From positions 10,067,624 through 10,131,623 of the forward strand of contig JAHRHZ010000218.1 of NCBI GenBank assembly GCA_024137785.1: 64,000 nt of DNA, written 5' to 3'. Below are positions 4,553-64,000 of this stretch, piece by piece (the first letter of the stretch is position 1; every line of letters starts with the position of its first letter). Under the pieces are notes generated by a model. It was not told where the DNA came from. It worked only from the letters and a program-made list of their open reading frames with translations, and made no database searches. This DNA is from Ginglymostoma cirratum (taxonomy: Eukaryota). The position numbers were made by a program, and so were the translations under genes.

Positions 4553-4625
4553 GCCCAGATAGCTCAGTTAGTAGCGTATCAGACTTTTAGTCTGAGGGTC
4601 CAGGGTTTAAGTCCCTGTTTGGGTG
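4553..4625 (+). pseudogene. tRNA-Lys(UUU)-derived sequence, head of a chimeric SINE-like element
   Basis: 73 nt GCCCAGATAGCTCAGTTAGTAGCGTATCAGACTTTTAGTCTGAGGGTCCAGGGTTTAAGTCCCTGTTTGGGTG. Nine differences from the vertebrate tRNA-Lys-UUU sequence as I recall it. Anticodon TTT at 4586-4588. T-loop GTTC is mutated to GTTT and the D-loop GG is lost. Confidence 0.85.
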
Positions 4626-4747
4626 CACAGGTTAGATGGATTAGTTGTGGTAAATGCGGTGATAGGGGAAGGAGTGTGGGTCTTGATGGGATGTTCTTCA
4701 TAGGGTCAGTCTGGACTCACTGACCCACTTCTACACTATAGGGATTC
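4626..4747 (+). mobile_element. 3' half of HE1-like V-SINE (CR1-derived tail) fused to the tRNA-Lys head
   Basis: Aligns by eye with the reverse complement of the SINE copy at 42874-43020 (ggttag.tgga...aaatgc.ggt..gatagg...tgggtc...ggattc). Confidence 0.75.
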
Positions 4748-9769: not shown

Positions 9770-10110
9770 ATTCATTATACAGTTTGGTACTTCACTGATG
9801 CCTCATATTGCAATGCTCTTGCCAAGTCACACTGCACACAAGAAAGCACACTCATGCTTCTGTACAAGAAGAAGCAACTTTTGCTATCTAGGATGCACCT
9901 CAATCTGGGGAGCAGGAGCCCATCCAAGATCCCAACAGATGCCCTGCAACAACTTAATGCTTGGAGCAGAGTAATTTTCATTGAGGTGACATTTGTGTCC
10001 TATTCTTGGGAGGAAGCCCTACCTAAGGGAATTGCCAGCCATTTGAATCTTTGGAGCTCTGCAGTCTGAGCAGTGCCACATGGGAGTGATGGTCACTGCT
10101 AGGACAATAG
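9770..10110 (-). mobile_element. Possible degenerate PIF/Harbinger transposase C-terminal fragment
   Basis: Minus ORF contains ASVGIL...RLRCILDSKS, resembling Harbinger TIGxLKxRFRCLDRS. Weak similarity. Confidence 0.35.
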
Positions 10111-10115
10111 GCAAA

Positions 10116-10683
10116 CATAGAGTTATACAGCATGGAAACAAAGCCTTTGGTCCAACTGGTCTGCATTGACCAGCTGTCCTAAACTGATCTAGTTCCATTT
10201 GCCAGCGTTTGGCCCATATCCCTCTCAAGATGTCTGTTTCAGGTACCCATGTAGATGCCTTTTAAATGTTGTAATTGTAACCACCTGGACCACTTCATCT
10301 TGCAGCTCATTCCACACATGCACCACCTTTTGCGTGAAAAAGTTGCCCCTCAGGTCCCTTTTAAATCTTCCCCCCTCACCTTAAACCTATGCCCTCTGGT
10401 TTTGGACTCCCCTACCTGGGGAAAAAGACCACGGCTATTCACCTTATCCATGCCCTCATGATTTTATAATCCTCAATAAGGCCACCCCTCAGCCTTCAAT
10501 GTTCCAGGGAGAAAAGCCTCAGCCTATTCAGCCTGTCCCTTTTGCTCAAACCCTCCAACTCCAGCAACATTCTTGTAAATCTTTTTTGAACCCTGCCAAG
10601 TTTAACAACATCTCTCCTATAGCAGAGAGACCAAGACTGAACACAGTATTCCAAAAATGGCCTCACCAATTTCCTGTACAGCC
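10116..10683 (-). mobile_element. CR1 LINE 3' end (5'-truncated)
   Basis: Minus ORF LYRKLVRPFLEYCVQSWSLCYRRDVVKLGRVQKRFTRMLLELEGLSKRDRLNRLRLFSLE is the canonical CR1 ORF2 C-terminus. The 3' tail matches the copies at 38097 and 63023. Confidence 0.92.
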
Positions 10684-13806: not shown

Positions 13807-13966
13807 ATTGCTGGGAAAGCTCAGAGCTCTGAAGAAGGGTCATTAGACCCAAAATGTCAACTCTGCTTTCTCTCCAAAGATGCTGCCAAACCTACTGAGT
13901 TTGCCCAGCAATTTCTGTATTGTTTCTTATTTCCAGTTTCCACAGTTCTTTGTGTTTTTTTTTGCT
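13807..13966 (+). mobile_element. Short Penelope-type element with hammerhead-ribozyme remnant (13822-13865) and partial inverted arm
   Basis: Reads CAGAGCT-CTGAAGA-A-GGGTC-ATTA-GACCC-aAAA-tGTC-AACTCTG. Imperfect TSD TTGTAC(G/A)GAA at 13797-13806 and 13967-13976. Confidence 0.75.
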
Positions 13967-19091: not shown

Positions 19092-19234
19092 GTGAAGAAA
19101 AAAATCAAAGTTACCATTTCTGAAATGTTAACTCTGATTTTTTCTTCACAGATGCTGCCAAACCTGCTGAGCTTTTCCAGCAACTTTTCTTTTGTTCCCG
19201 ATTTACAACATCCGCAGATCTTTGTTTTTTTTAG
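19092..19234 (+). mobile_element. Short Penelope-type palindromic element with ribozyme core deleted, 74 nt upstream of the FAT4 last-exon acceptor
   Basis: Inverted arms tgtgaagaaaaaaatcaaagttaccatttc / gaaatgttaactctgattttttcttcaca, family tail gatgctgccaaacctgctgagcttttccagcaa, and an exact 12-bp TSD AAAAACACAAAT at 19080-19091 and 19235-19246. Confidence 0.8.
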
Positions 19235-22225: not shown

Positions 22226-23127
22226 TGTTATTCTTTTATAAAATAATTAGTTTATTTTTAGGAAAATGATATTTTGTTTTTTAAACACTTTTCTAATATT
22301 TGCCTGAGCTCAGCGAAATCTGGAGACCTCATTTATCATATTGCTCATTTACTTTGAGCTTCAATCCTACGAAGATTTAAACTATGCTGAATTCATGTAA
22401 CCTAAAGGGAATTAATTTGGCTAATCTCACTTTCTAGACTAAACTGCACTGAATTTGACACTAATTGTCCCTAAGTGAGGAGTCTCAGTCAGAGAATTCT
22501 CAAGAGTGACTAATTTGGGAAAGGCAAGGATCATGTTAGAGCATTAAGAATGGGCAAGGCATAATGTTGAATGAGAAGGTGCTATAATTTGCACCTAACC
22601 TGAGCTTTGTCCCACCTAGAATAGTTTATCCTGACATTGATTGAAATGGGGAAATATGGTTAGATTTTCTGATGTCGCATAAAAGTTCATGAATAGTCAA
22701 GTTGCACTTCTCAGTACATCTTTATTACACGCCATCACAGGATTTATTTTTCATTGGCCTCAAAGCCAGGCAGAAATGGCTGAATAACTTAGCCAGTTCA
22801 AACTAGCACCTGTGCAACCGTGTAAGACTATCATATAGATTCCGGATAGCATATAATTTATAAGAAATTATGTGAGAGTGTTTATTATTTTTTCTAGTTG
22901 CTCTGGTGCAAATGGGCATTATGCTTGAACCACTGAAATCAACGACTAGAATTTTTCCTTCCCTGGTGTTATGTAGGTAATGACGAGAAAGATGGGAAAA
23001 TACAAAGGGATTGAAACAAAATCAGAATCTCAGTGTTAAGAAAAATGTTCTAATTTCCCTCTCAAGTTTTAAATGGCAGCTTCAGAACCTCGCCATTGAG
23101 CCGCGACTTAATTCCATGCATTTGCAA

Positions 23128-23486
23128 GAGTAAGCAATGGCCTAGAGGTATTATCCCCAACTATTAATCCTGAAACTCCATTTATATTCCAGAAACCCAG
23201 TTCACATCAGGCCATGGCAGATGGTGGAATTCGAATTCAGTAAAAGAATCTGGAATTAAGAGCCTAATGATGACCATGAAGCCATTGTCAATTGTCAGTA
23301 AAACACATCTGGTTCACTAACGTCCTCAGAAAAGGAGATCTCTCATCCTTATCTGGTCTGGCCTTCATGTAACTCCAGACCCAAAGCAATGTGGTTGATT
23401 CTTAACTGCCCTCTGGACAATTAAGGATGGGCATTAAATGCTGGCCTAGCCAGAGATGCCCATATCTGTGAGTGAATTTAAAAAAA
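23128..23486 (+). mobile_element. tRNA-headed SINE, internal-deletion derivative of the LINE at 45836-47740
   Basis: A-box-like TGGCCTAGAGG at 23138. Body homologous to 45836-46116 up to actgccctctg, joined directly to the LINE 3' end (caattaaggatgggcattaaatgctggcc...A-rich tail). Confidence 0.8.
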
Positions 23487-24040
23487 TCTAATTAAAGGCC
23501 CTACTCACTTATATGCCATTTCCAAACCTTTTCTCATTACCCGAGAAGCTAGACAGTGGAAATTATCAACAGCTTAATCAAAGCATGTACTTGGTGGCTG
23601 CATCTTGTCAAATACCTGTACCAACCATCATGTAACCAATTCTTCGTAATAACATGCCTGCATGCTCCATGGTTACTAACCTCCTTTGTCCCTGCACTTG
23701 GTAAATCACTAGCCTCAGTACAGGCTGAATGTCCCCATATTTTGGTTATGTTACTTTTCCCAAGTTTCATACAGGGTTTTTTTTCTCACCAGGTCTAACG
23801 TGTTTTCTTGCGTGATCACCCCTGGGTTTGCCTCAATAACTACCCAACTACACCCCTACAGCGCCTCCTGCTAGACTGATTCTCCCACTGGCCACAGCCA
23901 GAAGTACTTACCACTGTCTCGAGATTCTTGGCGCCAATGGCCATTTTTGAAAGGTGTTGTGCACCTGGTCATGCACTGATGGTCTGGAACTACCTTGCAC
24001 AGTGTGTAGCATTTGCCCCAGACACAGGAGCTAAGGGAAT

Positions 24041-31869: not shown

Positions 31870-32700
31870 ACTTTATAAAATAGTGGTTTAGCCTCAACTG
31901 CAGTATTGTGTCCAATCCCGGGCACCAACTTCAGGTCATTGGAGTGATGCAGGGAAGATGAAGAATAATGATCCCGAGGATGAGAGACTTCAGTTGTGTG
32001 GAAGGATTAGCAAATCTGGGGTTGTTGTTTTTATAGAATACAATATTGAGAGGAGATTTGATAAAGTGTTCAAAGTTATGAAGGACCTGGGCAGAACATG
32101 TAGAAAGAAGCTGTTTCCCATTTGGGTGGGGGATGGGGAATATTGGCGACCAGAGAACGACATTTTGGGGTGATTTGTAAAAGAATCAACAGTGACAGCA
32201 ATTAGCGAAGACAGTGGTGTAATAGTAATGTTACTAAGCTAGCATCCAGAGGACACTAGTTTGAATCCCATCATGGTAGATGGTGAGATTTGAATTCTCG
32301 TCTTATGGTAACCATTGTCGATTGTTGTAAAAAGTAATTTCCATTTCATTCACATATATCTTTTAGGGAAGTAAATCTGCCATCCTTACCTGGTCTAGCC
32401 TACATATGACTCCAAATCTGCAGCAATGTGGCTGTCTCTTAAATGCCCTCTGAGTAATTAGGGATGGGCAATAAACTGTGGCCTAGCTAATGACACCCAC
32501 AGTCCCATGTATAAAATAAAATAAAATCTGGAATGCACTGTCTTAGAATATGGTAGAAGTAATTTCAAGCACACTTTCAAAATGTAACTGGATAATACTC
32601 TGAAGAGAAAATATTGCAGAACTATTGAGAGAGAGAGCAGGAGAGTGGAACTAGATAAGTGCCTGTTACAGAGTTTTGCCATAGACAAAATGGGTTCAAT
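31870..32700 (+). mobile_element. Decayed CR1 3' fragment interrupted by a SINE (32206-32526)
   Basis: tttataaaatagtggtttagcctcaactgcagtattgtgtccaatccc encodes an LYK.LVRPQLxYCVQ-like motif. CR1 3' sequence resumes after the SINE A-rich tail. Confidence 0.6.
32206..32526 (+). mobile_element. tRNA-headed SINE (same family as 23128-23486)
   Basis: A-box-like gtggtgtaatagta, B-box-like gtttgaatccc, same body and same tgccctctg junction to the LINE 3' end, (ATAAA)n tail. Confidence 0.8.
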
Positions 32701-37113: not shown

Positions 37114-37577
37114 TCTTGAGGAGGGCAGAAGGTCATTACCTTTTCCCTCTGTTGTTGAACATTACTCCAGACATGGATCTCTGGGTAAAAACTGAAAGAA
37201 CTACAGATACAATAAATCGGAAACAAATGAAAAGAAATTACTGGAAAAGCTTAGAAGGTCTGGCAGCATCTCTGGAGAGAAATCAGAGTTAACATTTCAA
37301 GTTGAGTGATCCATTCTGAGGAAGTGTCATTTGACCCGAAACGTTAATATTTATTTATCTCCAGAGATACTGCCAGATCTGCTGAGTTTTTCAGCAATTT
37401 CTCATTTGGTTATGGATCTCTGGGTGGCAACCTCAAAGTAGCAGGCAGGGTCTGGTTCTGTGGTCTCCTCTGATGGTCCTGGAGAAAGAGGACAGAGCTC
37501 TACTCCACAACCGTGTCGATTAGGTCCTTCAGGCCTCTGTCTGTAAACCAAAGTGCTGGCTTCTTTTTGTCAGCCAT
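37114..37577 (-). mobile_element. Harbinger Myb/SANT-like ORF remnant split by the palindromic ribozyme element
   Basis: Minus MADKKKPALWFTDRGLKDLIDTVVE*SSVLFLQDHQRRPQNQTLPA..EVATQ, then the insertion, then ..SNVQQQREKV..NDLLPSSR. Confidence 0.7.
37187..37411. mobile_element. Palindromic Penelope-type element with hammerhead core (+ strand 37316-37345)
   Basis: Inverted arms; core CTGAGGA-A-GtGTC-ATTT-GACCC-GAAA-CGTT. Exact 14-bp TSD ATGGATCTCTGGGT at 37173-37186 and 37412-37425. Confidence 0.85.
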
Positions 37578-38096: not shown

Positions 38097-39590
38097 AGTC
38101 ATAGAGTTGTACAACACGGAAACAGACCTATCTGTCCAACCAGTCCATGCCAAACATAATCCTAAACCAAACTAGTCGCATCTGCCTGCTCCTGGCCCAT
38201 ATGCCCCCAAAACTTTCCTATTCATGTACTTATCCAAATGTCTTTTCAACATTGTAATTGTACCCATCTCCACCATTTCTTCAAAAAGTTCATTCCACAC
38301 GCAAACCACCCTCTGGTAAGTAAAATTGCCCTTCATCTTTTTTAAATCTCTGTCCTCTCACCTTGAAAATGTGTCCCCTAGTCTTGAAATCCTCCCTCCT
38401 AGGAAAAGACAATTACCATAAACTCTATCTATACCCCTCATTATTTTATAAATTTCTATCAGGTCTCCTCTCAACCTCCTATGCTCCAGTGAAAAAACTA
38501 CCAGCCTACCCAGCCTTTATGACTCAAACCTTCCATTCCTCGAATATCCTGGTAAATCTCTTCTGAACCCTCTCCAGCTTAATAATATCCTTCCTATAGC
38601 TGGGCAACTAGAACTAGATACAGTATTCCAGAAGAGGCCTCACCAATGTCCTGTACAACCTGAACTTGACTTCCCAACTCTTATACTCAAAGCAGTGAGC
38701 AACGAGGGCAAGTGCCCCAAACGCTTTTTTAATCACTCTATCTATATGTGATGCAATCTTCAAAGAATTATGTAGCTGAACGCCTGGTCTCTCTGTTCCA
38801 CAACACTACCCAAGGCCCTACCATTAATTGTATAAGGCCTACCCTTGTTTGTTGTACCAAAATGCAATCCCTCACATTTATCCAGATTCATAGATCATAG
38901 AATCTCTACAGTATGGAAACAGGCTCTTCGGCCCAACAAGTTCACACTGACCCACAGAGCATCCCACCCAGACCCATCCCCCTAGAACCCACCTAACCTA
39001 CACATTCCTGAATGCTATGGGTAATTTAGCATGGCCAATCCACCTATTCTGCACATCTTTGGACTGTGGGAGGAAACCGGAGCACCCGGAGGAAACCCAC
39101 ACAGACATGGGGAGAATGTGCAAACTCCACACAGACAGTCACCGGAGGGTGGAATCAAACCCAGATCCCTGGCGCTGTGAGGCAGCAGTGCTAACCATCT
39201 GCTGTTTTTCAGCCCATTGACACATTTGATCAAGATCCCTCTGTAATCTTAGAAAACCTTCTTCACTATCTACTATGCCACCAATTTTGGTGTTGTCAGC
39301 CATCTTACTAACCGAGCCTTCTCATCCAAATCATTGATATAAATGACAAACAAAAGAGGGCCCAACATTGATCCCTGTGGGACACCGCTGGTGATGGGCT
39401 TCCAGTCCAAAAAGCAAACTTCCACCACCACTCTCCTACTGTTAAGCCAATTGTGTATCCAATTGGTACGCTCTCTCTGAATCTCATGTGACCTAATTTT
39501 ACGAATTAATCTCCCATGTGGAACCTTATTAAAGACTTTACTAAAGCCCAAGTAAACAATGTCTACTGCTCTGCCTTCATCAATCTTCTC
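38097..39590 (-). mobile_element. CR1 LINE 3' ~1.2 kb, interrupted by an HE1-type SINE
   Basis: Minus ORF 39273-39698 contains RT motifs [22 protein letters not shown]...[23 protein letters not shown]. 3' tail at ~38097. Confidence 0.9.
38889..39197 (-). mobile_element. HE1-like V-SINE
   Basis: Minus strand: tRNA-like head (tggttagcactgctgcctcacagcgccagggatctgggtttgattcc), V-domain (gtgtggagtttgcacattctccccatgtctgtgtgggtttcctccgggtgctccggtttcctccc) and CR1-like tail. Confidence 0.9.
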
Positions 39591-42873: not shown

Positions 42874-43160
42874 ATCATTGAATCCTTCCACTGTGGATAC
42901 AGAACGCGTCCCATCAAATCCACACCAATTCTCTGAAAAGCATCTCACTCAGACCCAAAACCCCTACCCTATCTCTGTAAACCTGCATTTCCCATAGCTG
43001 TTCCACCTAACCCGCACATATTTGTGGGAGGAAACCGAAGCTCCCAGAGGACACTCACACAGACACAGGGAGAATGTGCAAACATTACGTGAGGCTAGAA
43101 TTGAACCTTGGTCCCTGGCACTGTGAGGCAGCAGTGGTAACCACTGAGCCACTGTACACC
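42874..43160 (-). mobile_element. HE1-like V-SINE
   Basis: Same head, V-domain and tail as 38889-39197, more diverged. Confidence 0.85.
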
Positions 43161-44312: not shown

Positions 44313-45835
44313 GTGGACATTCTTGAATAGCAAGTCATTACAATTTCAGCTAATAACATGTTTTGTTTTGTCAGATTAACAGTCTCTTGATTAGTAGAAT
44401 GATTGCAGGATTATTACATTAAAACAGACTAATATTGTGATAGCTGGCAGTGAAGATGCTATCATTTACAGAATGGTATAGTCCAAAATTTTAAAAGCTA
44501 AATGAACAGTTAAACTGTCACCATTGCATTATAAATCTCTGGATAGTTCCTTCACTTTTGACAAGATTCTAGAATATGTTTGTCTTACAGAACTTCACAT
44601 CTCTTTTGCGATAGTACATGCGAAGCAGAAGAATTTCCTTTATGCCAAAATTATTGACCACAAAATTAAACACATTTGATTTATTATAGACTGGTTGTGA
44701 TTGAGGTATAAGCTTGTAGGCTGAGACTATTAAATGAGTCACTCAAGAAGCAAACTGCTATTCCACCTCCCTGAGCCAAATCATTGTAATTTTGTGCATG
44801 GTGTATTGTTTCAGAAAGATATGGTCTACTGACTTAACAGAGAACAATTTTAGAATAATTTCTTTTGGAGCACTCAAGATCATTTAACTCTGTCTTTTAA
44901 GGCAAGAAATAAGTCTGTGTAAAAATACGCAAAGTTTGATCCTTTTTAGGAACTTCTGAATTATTAAACATCTACATACCACCAAGATTTCCCGGATATA
45001 TCATACTGAAAATAAACTTTGCTCAGTTGTCATATGGTGGTACTTAATTGTGGGAGAAATATTCATTGCTGTTAGGTTGACAGACTATTCAAAGCAAGTT
45101 TGTTAGGGTTTATGTAAATGACTTTTAGGGATACTGTCTTGAAGTTTCCATGTTGTCCTCTCTTACACTCTGTTATTCAATATAATCAGTAAGGGACAAC
45201 ATAATGAAAGCTCATTAATACAAACTATACCCTTGTGGAGAAGAGGAATAATAATTCCTTATGAGAAACTTACATTTGGTGACAAAATTGGACTTACTGT
45301 TCTGTTTCATGGGCCAAAGGATTATGGTGAGTGAGTTGGTGCCTTCGTGGATTCGTTTTCATATAGTTATGTTTCAAATTGATTTAAAGATCCAACTTTA
45401 TTGCTGAGGATTGTATAATCATTTATTAAGTATATTGAGTTTTCAGACAAAAAGATTTTAGAAAACCGAAGAGCGTGTGCTATAGAAATGAAATACTGTT
45501 AAGCATTAGAATTTGGATATTTCTGTCCAGCTCTTGCTATTCCCCCTGTTCAAAACAAAATCATGAAGGCATCCTCATAATAATTCTCATTCATAGATTT
45601 AAACTGATGAGTATCTGTCTGTGAACTATAAGGTCTGGGGACCGTTCTTCCTTTGCGAGTAATTGTTCCAATTGTGACATAGATCTGGAGAATGAGGCAA
45701 ACACATTGCATAATTAATAAAAAAAAGACTATTGCTTCAAAATCCAACACAAATTCTTTCACAATGTACAATTATATTTCCATATTAAATCACATTCTTG
45801 TCATTCTGCTTTTGGCTCATACAAAGCACAATCAT

Positions 45836-47740
45836 GAGGAGGCTATAGCCTAGAGGTATTTTTGCTTGACTATGAATCCAGAAACTCAGCTAACATTCTG
45901 GGGGCCTGGGCTTGAATCCTGCTGTTTAAATTTGAATTCAATAAAAGTACCTGGAAGTAAGAATCTAAAAATGACCATGAAACCATTGTCGATTATTGAA
46001 AAACCCAACTGGTTCACCAATGCCCTTCATGGAAGGAAATCTGCCATCCTCACCTAGTCTGGCCTACATGTGACACCAGAACCACAGCAATGTGGTTGAC
46101 TTGCAACTGCCCTCTGAAATGGCTTAGCATGCCATTCAGTTGTGTCAATCGCTACAAAGAATCAAAGAAATGAAACCGGACAGAACACCTGACATTGACC
46201 TTGGCACCGGAAAAGCTAACAGTGGCACAGCACTGACAATGCTGAAAGTCCTCTTTACTAACACCTGGGGGATTGTGCCAAAATTGGGAGAGCTGTCACA
46301 TAGACTGATCAAGCAACAGGCTGACATAGTCATACTCACAGGATCGTATAATGTCCCAAACACCACCATCACCATCCCTGGATATGCCCTGTCCCACCGG
46401 CAGGACAGAGCCAGCGGAGGTGGCAGCAGAGTGGTACATAGTCTGGAGGGTATTCCCCGGGGAGTCCTCAACATTGACTCCCGACATTATGAAGTCCCAT
46501 AGCTTCAGGTTAAACATGGGCAAGGGAACTTTCTACTGATTACCACATACCGCTCTCCTTAGGCTGATAATTCAGTATGCCTTCACGCTGAACAACACTG
46601 AGATGAAACGCTGAGGATGGCAAGTGCACAAAATGTACACTCTGTGAGGGATTTTAATGTCCACCACCAAGAGTGGCTCAGCAGCAGTACTACTGATCGA
46701 GATGGTTGGGTCCTAAAGGGCGTAGCTGCTAAATTAAGTTGGTAGCATGTGGTGAGGGAACCAACAAGAGGGAAAAACATACTTGACCTCATCCTTACCG
46801 ATTTACTGGCTGCAGATGCATCTGTCCATGACAGTACCGATAAGAGTGATCACCATACAGTCCTTGTGGAGACAAAGTCCTGCCTTCACAATGAGAAAAC
46901 ATTTCATCATGTTGTGTGTCACCATGATAAATGGGATGGACTTTGAACAGATCCAGCATCTCAAGATGAGCCATCCGTGAGGTTCCAATGGCCATTAACA
47001 TAGCAGAATTGAACTTTAGCAAAATCTGCAAACTCAAGGGGTGCATATCCCCCACTCAACTGTTACCATCAAGCCAGGAGCCTGGTTAAGTAGCATGCAG
47101 GGGGGCATGTGAGGAGCAGCACCAGGCATACCTGAAAATGAGGTGTCAACCTGGTGAAGCCACCAAACAGGACTTCTTGCATGCCAAGCAGCATAAACAG
47201 CAAGTGATAGATAGAGTTAAGTGATTCCACAAAAAATGGGTCAGATCTAAGCTCTGCAGTCCTGCCACATCCAGTTGTAAACGATGGTGGACAACCCTGT
47301 TAGGGTTCCAGCAGAACCACTCAGCCTTGGTTCAAACATGGACAAAAGAACTAAATTCCAGAGATGAGGTGAGAGTGACAGCCCTTGGTATCAAGGCTGC
47401 TTTCAACCAAATATGGCTTCAAGGAGCACGAGCAAAACTGGAATCAATAGGTATCAGGGAACAAACTCTTCAAGGTTTGGAGTCATACCTGGCACATAGG
47501 AAGATGGTTGTAGTTGTTGGGGGTCAGTCATCTCAGATCCAGGACATCTCTGCAGGAATTCCTCAGGGTTGGGTCCTCAGCCCAATCGGCTCTCCACGTG
47601 TAAATAAAGGCTGATTTGGTGATGGGATACTGGCCTCTGTGGGGTTATTTTGCCACCACCTTCTCAAGGGCAACTACAGATGGGCAATAAATTCTGGCCA
47701 GCCTGCAACAGCCACATCCCATAAAATGAATAAAATAAAA
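45836..47740 (+). mobile_element. Internally deleted LINE (CR1-group-like APE endonuclease + RT) with tRNA-like 5' head
   Basis: APE motifs LKVLFTNTWGIVPKLGEL...DIVILTGSY...IPGY...RQDRASGGG and PTRGKNILDLILTD...SDHHTV. RT motifs VTALGIKAAFNQIW...AGIPQGWVLSP. A-rich 3' end and possible 6-bp TSD AATCAT at 45830-45835 / 47740-47745. Confidence 0.85.
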
Positions 47741-48244
47741 ATCATCCCATGTCCATTGTTTTTTAAGCACAGGCATTTCAGTTTTGATATTCTGTCTTTC
47801 GTGATACATTTTCAAAATGCATTTTTCTTTATTTACTCAAGAAGCCAAACTGACAGCATAATGTTATGCATATGCAATAAACTGCAGCTATAAGTGCTAT
47901 TGCTGCAAAGCAACTTCAAGTCATCTAGTGGGAGACATGAGTTAAGAGTGATTTAAGAGTGGGAGAAGTGGAGTGAGCGTACTGACTTAACAGGACTGGG
48001 CACATGGATGCCCTATTGAACTTAACATCCAGGGACTATTCTAAACATTTTTTCTTCTACACTTGACTAGCAGCTGATCAAACTTACAACCTGACAAGAA
48101 ATCAGAGGGATGAAATGATGGTAGCAAGGTGAAACCCAGGACCCTTTGAGCAAGTCCCCAAAACTTTTGAAAAGGTAAGGTTGGTTATTGCAATAGGGGA
48201 AGGTACTTTAATGAAGAAGCTACTCCATGAAAGGGTGAAGATAG

Positions 48245-48472
48245 TCAAATAATTCCACAGAGGCCCGTATCCCACACCAAGTCACCCTTTATTTACACAT
48301 GAACACTCCTTGACTATAGCAATGGCTCATTCAGACTTAGATACTCAACATCTCTGACACTCACCCTTTTAAATGTCAACCAGGGCTCCCTGATTGGACC
48401 AGATTAACAGCGCCAATCAGGGAACTCACAGTCTATGATGTCCAGCCAGCTGACATTGTTATAATCACTACA
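48245..48472 (-). mobile_element. Solo LTR
   Basis: Reverse complement starts TGTAGTGAT and is homologous along its length to 57076-57310. 5-bp TSD GATAG/GATGG. Confidence 0.75.
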
Positions 48473-53552: not shown

Positions 53553-53886
53553 TAGAATCCTTACAGTGTGGAAGCAGGCCATTTGGCCCATCGAATTTAC
53601 ACTGATCCTCTGAAGAGCATTCCACTCAGATGCATCATCTACCCTATCCCTTTAAGCCCACATTCCCCACCTAACCTATATATTCCTGGATATTATGGGC
53701 AATTTAACATGGCCAATCCACTAACCTGTACGTCATTGGACTATGGGAAAAAACTAGACCACCCGAAGGAAACCCTCAGAGACATTGGAAGAACATGCAA
53801 ACTCCACACAGACTGTCTCCCAAGCATGGAATCAAACTCAGGTCCCTGGCACTGTGAGGCAGTAATGCTAACCATTGAGTCACCAT
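53553..53886 (-). mobile_element. HE1-like V-SINE
   Basis: Homologous to 38889-39197. Confidence 0.85.
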
Positions 53887-57075: not shown

Positions 57076-57310
57076 TGTAGTGATTGGAATGGGGTTGGCT
57101 AGCTGGATCTCACTGAGTATGAGTTTCCTGATTGGGCCTATTAACCTGGGCCAATTAGAGAGTCCTGGCTGACAGATATAACAGGAGTCTCAGGGACTGT
57201 CAGCATTCTAGGGACTGGCTCTGAGCTAGCTAGTTATTGTCCAAGAACTGGGTGTGTGTAAATAAGGTGTGACTTGGTGACAGGATACTGGTCTCTGTGG
57301 AGTTATTTCA
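57076..57310 (+). mobile_element. Solo LTR
   Basis: TGTAGTGAT...TTATTTCA termini, inverted CCAAT boxes, TATA-like gatataa, polyA-like aaataag, 5-bp TSD GGGAA/GGCAA. Confidence 0.75.
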
Positions 57311-61594: not shown

Positions 61595-61735
61595 AAGTTT
61601 GAAGAAGGGTCAAAGGACTTAAAACATCAACTCTATTTTCTCTCCACACATGATGCAAATTTGCTGAGATGTGCCAGCAATTTCTGTTTATCTTTATTTC
61701 AGATTTCCAGAATCTGCAGCTTTTTGCTTTAATTT
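61595..61735 (+). mobile_element. Single-arm copy of the hammerhead-bearing element
   Basis: AGT-tTGAAGA-A-GGGTC-AAAG-GACtt-aAAA-CATC-AACT, then the family tail (tctctccacacatgatgc...gctgag...ccagcaatttctg...ttcagatttccagaatctgcag). Confidence 0.7.
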
Positions 61736-62900: not shown

Positions 62901-63022
62901 CAAAACAAATTTTCCTATTCATTGAGGTAACATACACTATTTAAAGCAGCATTTTCCCTTTTTAAACCCAGTATCAATAACAGAGTCTCGCCGTATAAGT
63001 AAAGCTCAAATTGGATTTAGTC

Positions 63023-63315
63023 AGTCATACAGCTGTTCGGCATGAAAATGGACCCTTTGGTCCAACCTGTCCATGCTGACCAGATATCCTAAATTAATCT
63101 AGTCCCATTTGCTAACATTTGGCCCATATCCTTCTAAACCCTTCCTATTCATGTCCTCATCCAGATGTCTTTTAAATGTTGAAATGGTGGAGGCTGGTAC
63201 AATTACCTCTGGCGCCTCATTCCATATACGCACCACCCTGTGTATGAAAAGGTTGCCCCTTTGGTCCCTTTTAAATCTTTCCCTTTTCACCTTAAACCTA
63301 TGCCCTCTAGTTTTA
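63023..63315 (-). mobile_element. CR1 LINE extreme 3' end
   Basis: Minus ORF ERFKRDQRGNLFIHRVVRIWNEAPEVIV...TFKRHLDEDMNRKGLEGYGPN. Homologous to 10116-10410. Confidence 0.9.
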
Positions 63316-64000
63316 AAGTACTATTCCACTGGACAAATTAAGGTGTCAATCCTTAGGAACAGAGAGGGAAGTGTAGAAGATACCAATGAAGTAGAATTCG
63401 ATGAGTGCTGCTGAATTTTAAGACTACATTGTACATTTTGCTAAACTGATTCTGTTGGGAGAACGAGCAGCAGGAGACTGCAATTAGAGACTTTTGTGTA
63501 AAACCATATAGTTATGAATACAGACAGGTTGCAGATCAAAACTTGGGCTGGGGTGAGTTTGTCACCTCTGGGATGGAAAAAGGCTTAGGTAGGAGACGTT
63601 GAAGACTTCTTTGAGGGATGAGGAAAGATGAAACACTCTTGGCTCACATTAAGAGGTACAAAATGCATTGAATTTGAAGAGCCACCAGCTTCTATTTAGT
63701 GAGAGTCCAAGAAGACAGTCAGCTGCAATTAAATTTAAATCAGTCTTCCAATTACACTGGGATCTTGTTTGAATATGTTGTTGAGGTTTACTGCTGATGA
63801 CATGAATCCTGTTACCACTAAAATCAACAATGGTTAAGTCCAGTAAAAACAAAAACATGCAGCAGGCCAGCCAGCATCTATGGAGAGAAAAAACTAAGTC
63901 TGTGTTTCAAAAGTGATCAAAAATTAGCTCAGTTTTTTCACTTTACACCACCACAGAGATTTCAGTTTTAAATTAACACTTACTCAAGCTAAAACTAATT

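Follow-up and report, generated by a model that had tools for sequence, protein, structure and literature searches.

SINEs are thought to be assembled stepwise from a small-RNA head and pieces of LINEs, and most SINE bodies are of unknown origin. Among the described systems closest to the locus analysed here are the Zenon LINEs of Lepidoptera, which, according to the available text of PMC6740152, produced internally deleted elements at least four times; the first-pass annotation of our locus had called the birth of a SINE by internal deletion unusual, and this route is less unusual than was stated there. Persaeus, a Zenon SIDE of Lepidoptera, resembles the short elements described below in having the 5' UTR joined to the ORF end, the 3' UTR and an A tail, and in being mobilised in trans, but differs, as far as the same text goes, in that it lacks tRNA homology and a Pol III promoter and that both its breakpoints and its middle vary. 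Likewise mobilised via the Zenon 3' tail are ZenoSINE / Fritillar in heliconiine butterflies (PMC6685494) and those SINEs of bivalves that have CR1-Zenon tails (PMC11481361), but in the accessible portions of these papers the tail is all that they share with the LINE. Bipartite SINEs of RTE and Vingi LINEs (Bov-tA, AfroSINE, CoeSINE4, SINE2_Gav) combine, as ours do, a tRNA head with a piece of the LINE 5' UTR and its 3' end, but there the LINE itself lacks the head, which was joined to the short element (PMC5786205). Across Repbase, a survey identified no sources of bipartite SINEs other than RTE and Vingi, and the same paper names one LINE family in which a tRNA-like sequence occurs, RTE-1_DAn along with its relatives (PMC5786205), so that tRNA-bearing LINEs are not without precedent.

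Elasmobranchs carry Zenon elements of their own. Full-length copies from five elasmobranchs, without ORF1, with poly-A tails and not formally annotated, are described in the available text of bioRxiv 10.64898/2026.01.13.699120, which also gives the poly-A tail as unique to Zenon among CR1-group elements; in its main text the words 'tRNA' and 'promoter' occur 0 times, and no SINE partner is described there. For the whale shark, the portion available of bioRxiv 10.1101/443036 mentions a 'CR1-Zenon like LINE'. Sharks also have tRNA-headed SINEs of a size similar to those of our locus, SacSINE1 and the DeuSINEs, with L2-2_CM reported as the partner LINE of SacSINE1 (excerpts of PMC5499810 and PMC4824008). 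Further related literature, likewise available in part, comprises PMC5753468, PMC3747384, PMC10886601 and PMC2746220.

The window, a repeat-rich stretch of 64,000 nucleotides of Ginglymostoma cirratum DNA, contains a LINE copy at 45836-47739 and two short elements, SINE A (23128-23487) and SINE B (32206-32527), all on the + strand. The LINE copy is decayed and internally deleted, with a single ORF and remnants of an APE endonuclease and an RT; it is dead and not full length. The 6-mer AATCAT lies on both sides of it, at 45830-45835 and 47740-47745 (+), and encloses head and tail within one TSD pair, as the first-pass annotation had proposed to check; the pair is only 6 bp long and was chosen by eye, and its chance near two fixed ends is 0.010 (20,000 random pairs). 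The 7-mer returned by an automatic TSD search was dropped since it does not abut the LINE ends. Between the left TSD and the ATG at 46170 lies a 5' UTR of 334 nt, which comprises a tRNA-like head (45836-45925), a body common to both SINEs (45926-46116) whose 3' end is the SINE breakpoint, and a remainder found in the LINE and not in the SINEs (46117-46169), the same segment being present in the whale-shark gene models P0006 and P0009. The ATG at 46170, where the models P0010 and P0029 also begin, is the inferred start of the ORF.

The start of the ORF and the APE remnant, which contains stops, occupy 46170-46940 and gave a match to Exo_endo_phos_2 (PF14529; E 4e-6, 27.0 bits, slightly below the 27.4 cut-off) as well as 35 homologues. 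A linker and the N-terminal part of the RT follow at 46941-47594, frameshifted and internally deleted, with an RVT_1 match (PF00078, E 3e-9) on 47237-47596. These domain matches, found in two of the four LINE pieces scanned with Pfam (46143-46499 and 46758-46940 gave none), bear out the earlier claim that the head continues into endonuclease and RT coding remnants. Beyond a foreign fragment at 47595-47650, where the remainder of the RT is absent, the final ORF codons (HHLLKGN, 47652-47677) lead into the 3' tail common to both SINEs (47668-47739; 75-79% identity), which has an A-rich end. Folding of head and body revealed no structure more stable than in shuffles, and for the tail stem-loop the z-scores across the three copies were -0.2, -2.2 and -1.1, so a hairpin in the 3' tail is only suggested. 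Just 3' of the SINE breakpoint, 46119-46127 forms an upstream ORF of two codons that shares the reading frame of the main ORF; the whale-shark model P0006 starts at its ATG (46119) and reads through, and this upstream ORF could bear on translation of the main ORF. Just 3' of the B box, at 45934-45945, a GAATTC palindrome is followed by AATAAA, where SINE A reads AGTAAA; a polyadenylation-like signal so early in the element would be inconvenient for a transcript made by Pol II.

The foreign fragment matches the ends of repeats at 57256-57308 (+) and 48247-48301 (-) with 85-88% identity, and these belong to a repeat of about 230 bp (57076-57308, +; 48247-48472, -) that looks like a solo LTR, of which the fragment is the 3' end. 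Within the LINE as first annotated, 47595-47650 is thus not LINE sequence. In 829-1028 of the public contigs per run, what lies to the left of 47653 is not the LTR fragment. Because these contigs differ and the HHLLKGN codons resume after the fragment, an LTR-like insertion near the end of the ORF has struck this copy, which has lost most of its RT. Contigs of a related organism, about 4% different, cover the flank with the head (24 of 594 letters differ) and the tail with the flank (18 of about 514); since they span both ends of the copy, the insertion predates that split.

Comparison of the short elements with the LINE revealed a common internal junction. SINE A consists of the LINE head and body joined to the LINE tail at 23415/23416: its positions 23125-23415 align with 45833-46116 of the LINE (72% over 293 columns, E 1e-44, BLAST), and 23415-23488 with 47668-47743 (E 0.003, BLAST). 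Its head segment shares 59 of 87 positions with the LINE head, a result that 0 of 300 shuffles equalled, and no segment of SINE A is missing from the LINE. SINE B agrees with SINE A in body, junction (32452/32453) and tail, the tail matching at 32456-32526 against 47672-47740 (E 1e-6, BLAST); its A box is at 32215 and its B box at 32258. Its body matches the LINE from 45981 onward only (74% over 144, BLAST), and its head is about 20 nt shorter and differs in the A box from that of the LINE and SINE A; the heads of SINE A and SINE B did not align significantly, 18 of 300 shuffles doing equally well. Thus the jump of both short elements to the LINE tail was upheld, whereas the claim that both match the first ~280 bp of the LINE is right for SINE A and wrong for the SINE B head. 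Over 45981-46116, the LINE body is 80% identical to SINE A and 78% to SINE B.

When all trial breakpoints were scanned, one and the same register came out best for SINE A and SINE B (1553, counted as 3' start minus 5' end), with best breakpoints of 46115-46118 / 47668-47671 for A and 46117 / 47670 for B. The junction 46115/6 | 47668/9 has one base of microhomology, and the point at which LINE and SINEs diverge is exactly the join of SINE body and tail, in the same register in both window copies. The tail, the last ~72 nt of the LINE, starts inside the final ORF codons, and both SINEs carry a stop codon where the LINE copy reads TAC. Joints of body to tail were present in the public contigs of all four runs; among the joint types listed with their in-between letters, three of five fit the register 46115/6 | 47668/9, and two are shorter and do not. 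The internal-deletion structure, with SINE A free of sequence of its own, one register in two copies and agreement from other genomic copies, was accordingly sustained, as was the common breakpoint for which the first-pass annotation had proposed a check. Behind 46101, between 620 and 836 contigs per run have loose ends with a consensus agreement of 0.47-0.49; the match of this mixed consensus to a blend of SINE-type and LINE-type continuations is too weak to be relied on. No TSDs were found for SINE A or SINE B, which are old copies. Both elements show the build of a tRNA-derived SINE (SINE2), with an A/B-box head, a partner-LINE tail and a multicopy unit of fixed structure. SINE A also consists solely of the 5' and 3' ends of its partner LINE, as a SIDE does, and the same is true of SINE B except for the head; a SIDE lacks both tRNA homology and a Pol III promoter, whereas A and B boxes are present here.

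In the LINE, roughly the first 85 nt are tRNA-like, with a tRNA-length remnant at 45839-45909, an A box at 45846-45856 and a B box at 45909-45919. The LINE head is the only place on the + strand of the 64-kb window with an A-box/B-box pair at 0/2 mismatches, and the only such pair on the - strand is the head of another SINE; the scan used what we take to be the A-box/B-box consensus. With a tRNA-Gln covariance model, 45839-45909 ranked second in the window over the full model length (E 0.006); this test is partly circular, as a motif of the anticodon arm had served to pick the references (47 loci, of which 35 were tRNA-Gln; the model was built from 16), and for that reason the label tRNA-Gln is only suggested and was not adopted. 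The same model missed the heads of SINE A and SINE B. A profile without the anticodon arm gave the LINE, SINE A and SINE B heads scores that were exceeded by only 1, 2 and 1, respectively, of 600 random window segments, and four control SINE heads scored similarly. No tRNA was called on any of the three heads by ARAGORN or by Rfam (E up to 10). By the non-circular profile, the reading of the LINE head as tRNA-like with A and B boxes, which had already been put forward, is supported. The gap between A and B box is 21 nt in SINE B, which is tRNA-like, 41 nt in the LINE and 39 nt in SINE A, and the D-arm/T-arm score was highest for the SINE B head (19.4 vs 10.2 and 7.8). The spacing in the LINE/A head is thus some 20 nt longer than in a tRNA or in SINE B, and at 45889-45919 this head seemingly holds a T arm that has decayed and, after it, a second B box that is the better of the two.

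Other repeats of the window include a second tRNA-headed SINE in three copies, at 38898-39198, 42880-43152 and 53553-53875 (-); we take it to be HE1/V-SINE-like, and its copies were used as controls when the heads were tested. Calling other repeats of the window HE1 and HER1 is likewise our assumption. A tRNA-Lys(ttt) with mismatched stems was called at 4553-4626 (+) by ARAGORN/Rfam (51 bits); rather than a gene, it may be a pseudogene or the head of a SINE. The 3' ends of a second LINE family, which looks like canonical CR1, lie at 10108-10683, 38097-38660 and 63018-63317 (-), and four copies of a repeat of ~110 bp, 76-81% alike, at 13830-13960, 19121-19232, 37187-37299 (-) and 61600-61709.

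Homologous proteins were used to ask how far the 5' end is a property of the family, and 23 of 42 were tested against the LINE 5' end. The closest endonuclease homologues are gene models of Heterodontus francisci and Rhincodon typus. P0009 translates the body, crosses 46116 as the LINE does up to 46149, skips 46150-46232 and continues into the APE; P0005 has a piece of the body joined to the APE; P0006 runs unbroken from 46119 into the APE; and P0010, P0028 and P0029 contain the linker. As links between body and APE, P0009 and P0005 lose some weight because a gene model may be spliced. P0029 aside, these proteins are five distinct whale-shark gene models (P0005, P0006, P0009, P0010, P0028), of which at most one can therefore be orthologous to the LINE locus. 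In addition, a Logan contig (P0034) encodes the end of the body and the APE in one protein, its body part being equalled by 14 of 1000 shuffles; P0018 was tried as a further link and rejected as not significant (72 of 1000). For the tRNA head, no credible match to the head frames was found among the 23 proteins tested, the sole score coming from a distant relative (P0032) and being low among 184 tests. To judge from these translations, attachment to the ORF is a family trait at least for the body of the 5' UTR. The check proposed in the first-pass annotation, whether the head recurs on ORF-bearing copies, thus has an answer in part: the body does so in whale-shark models, and the head was credibly matched in none of the 23 proteins.

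Summed contig depth, which is not copy number, was continuous along the LINE, with the head bins 20- to 100-fold below the body bin; this allows that many copies carry another head. The body, in terms of the same measure and with the same limit on its reading, was about 10-fold deeper than the APE. Searches further afield gave little: a word search of proteins with the body translation returned 0 hits and two other word-based protein searches 1 and 3; DNA pattern scans returned 0 matches in viral contigs and 8 in metagenome contigs, all chance and without flanking similarity; related-locus scans with the APE alignment confirmed 0 of 18 viral and 0 of 37 prokaryote-genome candidates; and a PDB search returned nothing meaningful. 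LINE fragments lie inside the shark gene models P0001-P0003 and P0005-P0029, for example a Heterodontus 'zinc finger protein 850-like', and are probably annotation artefacts. P0020, P0027, P0030, P0032, P0035 and P0037 are distant endonuclease relatives, P0030 with 30% identity.

By its structure and by motif resemblance judged by eye, the LINE fits the CR1-Zenon type. Pfam remnants of APE and RT occur in order and would belong to one ORF, the copy being decayed and the single frame inferred; there is no room for an ORF1, as just 334 nt separate TSD and ATG; and the ends of all three copies are A-rich, though decayed and not a pure A run. The surviving RT amounts to only ~120 aa. One APE-RT ORF, no ORF1, an A-rich tail and abundance in sharks are shared with the elasmobranch CR1-Zenon elements as far as these are described in the sources available, and the ORF end and APE motifs resemble, by eye, those shown for lepidopteran Zenon in the published material at hand. 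Compared with Persaeus, A/B boxes are present in the short form of the window, and a single junction register prevails among the copies observed; compared with the bipartite SINEs, its partner LINE is of the CR1 group and bears the head itself. An identity with SacSINE1 was rejected, because its head positions 2-78 (PMC5786205 supplement) are unlike the window heads by eye, and so was a Deu domain in the body, which by eye is unlike the part of the Deu alignment available (PMC7245038 supplement). By eye, no likeness of the body to the published Deu, Meta and UCON3 alignments was found. A search of the open literature, with Repbase Reports, Dfam, SINEBase and subscription journals outside its scope, yielded no description of a tRNA-headed shark LINE or its SINE, and it is quite possible that a name already exists. 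Zenon LINEs and bipartite SINEs are known kinds; the tRNA head on a coding element is the unusual part.

Taken together, we consider it probable that the LINE belongs, as an old copy, to a CR1-Zenon-type LINE that is abundant in elasmobranchs and that the short elements are its non-autonomous one-deletion family. This route is preferred for its parsimony, since the divergence of LINE and SINE falls precisely on the body/tail join and nothing in SINE A is missing from the LINE. A single internal deletion, or a template jump during reverse transcription (1-nt microhomology), would have taken out the ORF and spared two parts: the head with its promoter and, at the 3' end, the stem-loop by which the LINE protein would recognise its RNA. 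The product would at once have been a transcribable and mobilisable SINE, its A/B boxes driving it by Pol III, and would then have spread in trans and split into subfamilies, the subfamily of B changing its head; the LINE copy itself was later struck by the LTR-like insertion close to the end of its ORF, and most of its RT has been lost. That the same junction occurs in SINE B together with a head that is shorter and more tRNA-like indicates that heads were changed or exchanged at some point, and leads to an order of events that we regard as unlikely: a headless Zenon deletion product gained the head by template switching, and the head was then recombined back onto the LINE. Such a route has been put forward for RTE/Vingi-derived SINEs (PMC5786205), the lepidopteran Zenon deletion products described in the available text of PMC6740152 have no tRNA head, and an exact junction is predicted here as well. 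The more tRNA-like spacing and top D-arm/T-arm score of the SINE B head would also be expected if heads evolved in the SINE lineage; yet the LINE head holds a whole tRNA-length remnant and a second B box, the spacing in B may reflect a later deletion, no headless form appeared in the material analysed, and two additional events are required.

Module exchange between SINEs and LINEs is well documented (PMC5499810, PMC7245038, as far as available), and the roughly 10-fold excess of body over APE depth implies that short forms are abundant, so that an independent, older SINE of tRNA head, unrelated body and Zenon tail might have given head and body to the LINE. We hold this to be quite improbable: the capture would have had to stop at the last base before the SINE tail, one position among several hundred, and the body is unlike the published conserved SINE domains compared, so there is no reason to think it older than the LINE. 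The copy is, on the other hand, visibly rearranged, with an LTR-like fragment and deletions, its TSD is only 6 bp, and it is the single head-bearing long copy in the material analysed, as might be expected if a SINE had come to adjoin, or had recombined with, a headless LINE at this locus. Against such an accident stand the one tail, continuous with the ORF end, and the body joined to the post-junction UTR and the APE in several whale-shark models and the Logan contig; as body and endonuclease are joined at other loci in whale-shark models, a chimera of one locus is very improbable. Descent of the SINE from the LINE by one deletion thus remains the reading that we prefer.

Whether the tRNA-like head would also drive the LINE itself was considered from the distribution of T runs. 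Two runs of T4+ occur in 1759 nt of the LINE, against 3.7 and 2.9 expected (P 0.27 and 0.44), and this depletion is not significant. One of the two is specific to this copy, with C at 46655 in 85,988 of 87,426 depth (98%, X1), and the second is absent from SINE A; the LINE ancestor may have had no T4+ run in this region, for which the chance P of zero runs is 0.04. Pol III transcription of the LINE from its tRNA head is on these sequence features a tentative and rather doubtful proposition.

For the annotation of shark genomes, the analysis means that fragments of an abundant, formally unannotated LINE land in gene models. For the family, a LINE that has head and body as its own 5' end would offer a one-step route to a SINE and would name the source of one CR1-group SINE body. 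If the head also drives the LINE, the element would break the rule that LINEs are transcribed by Pol II and SINEs by Pol III, and it would pose the testable question of how an uncapped RNA of ~3 kb gets translated.
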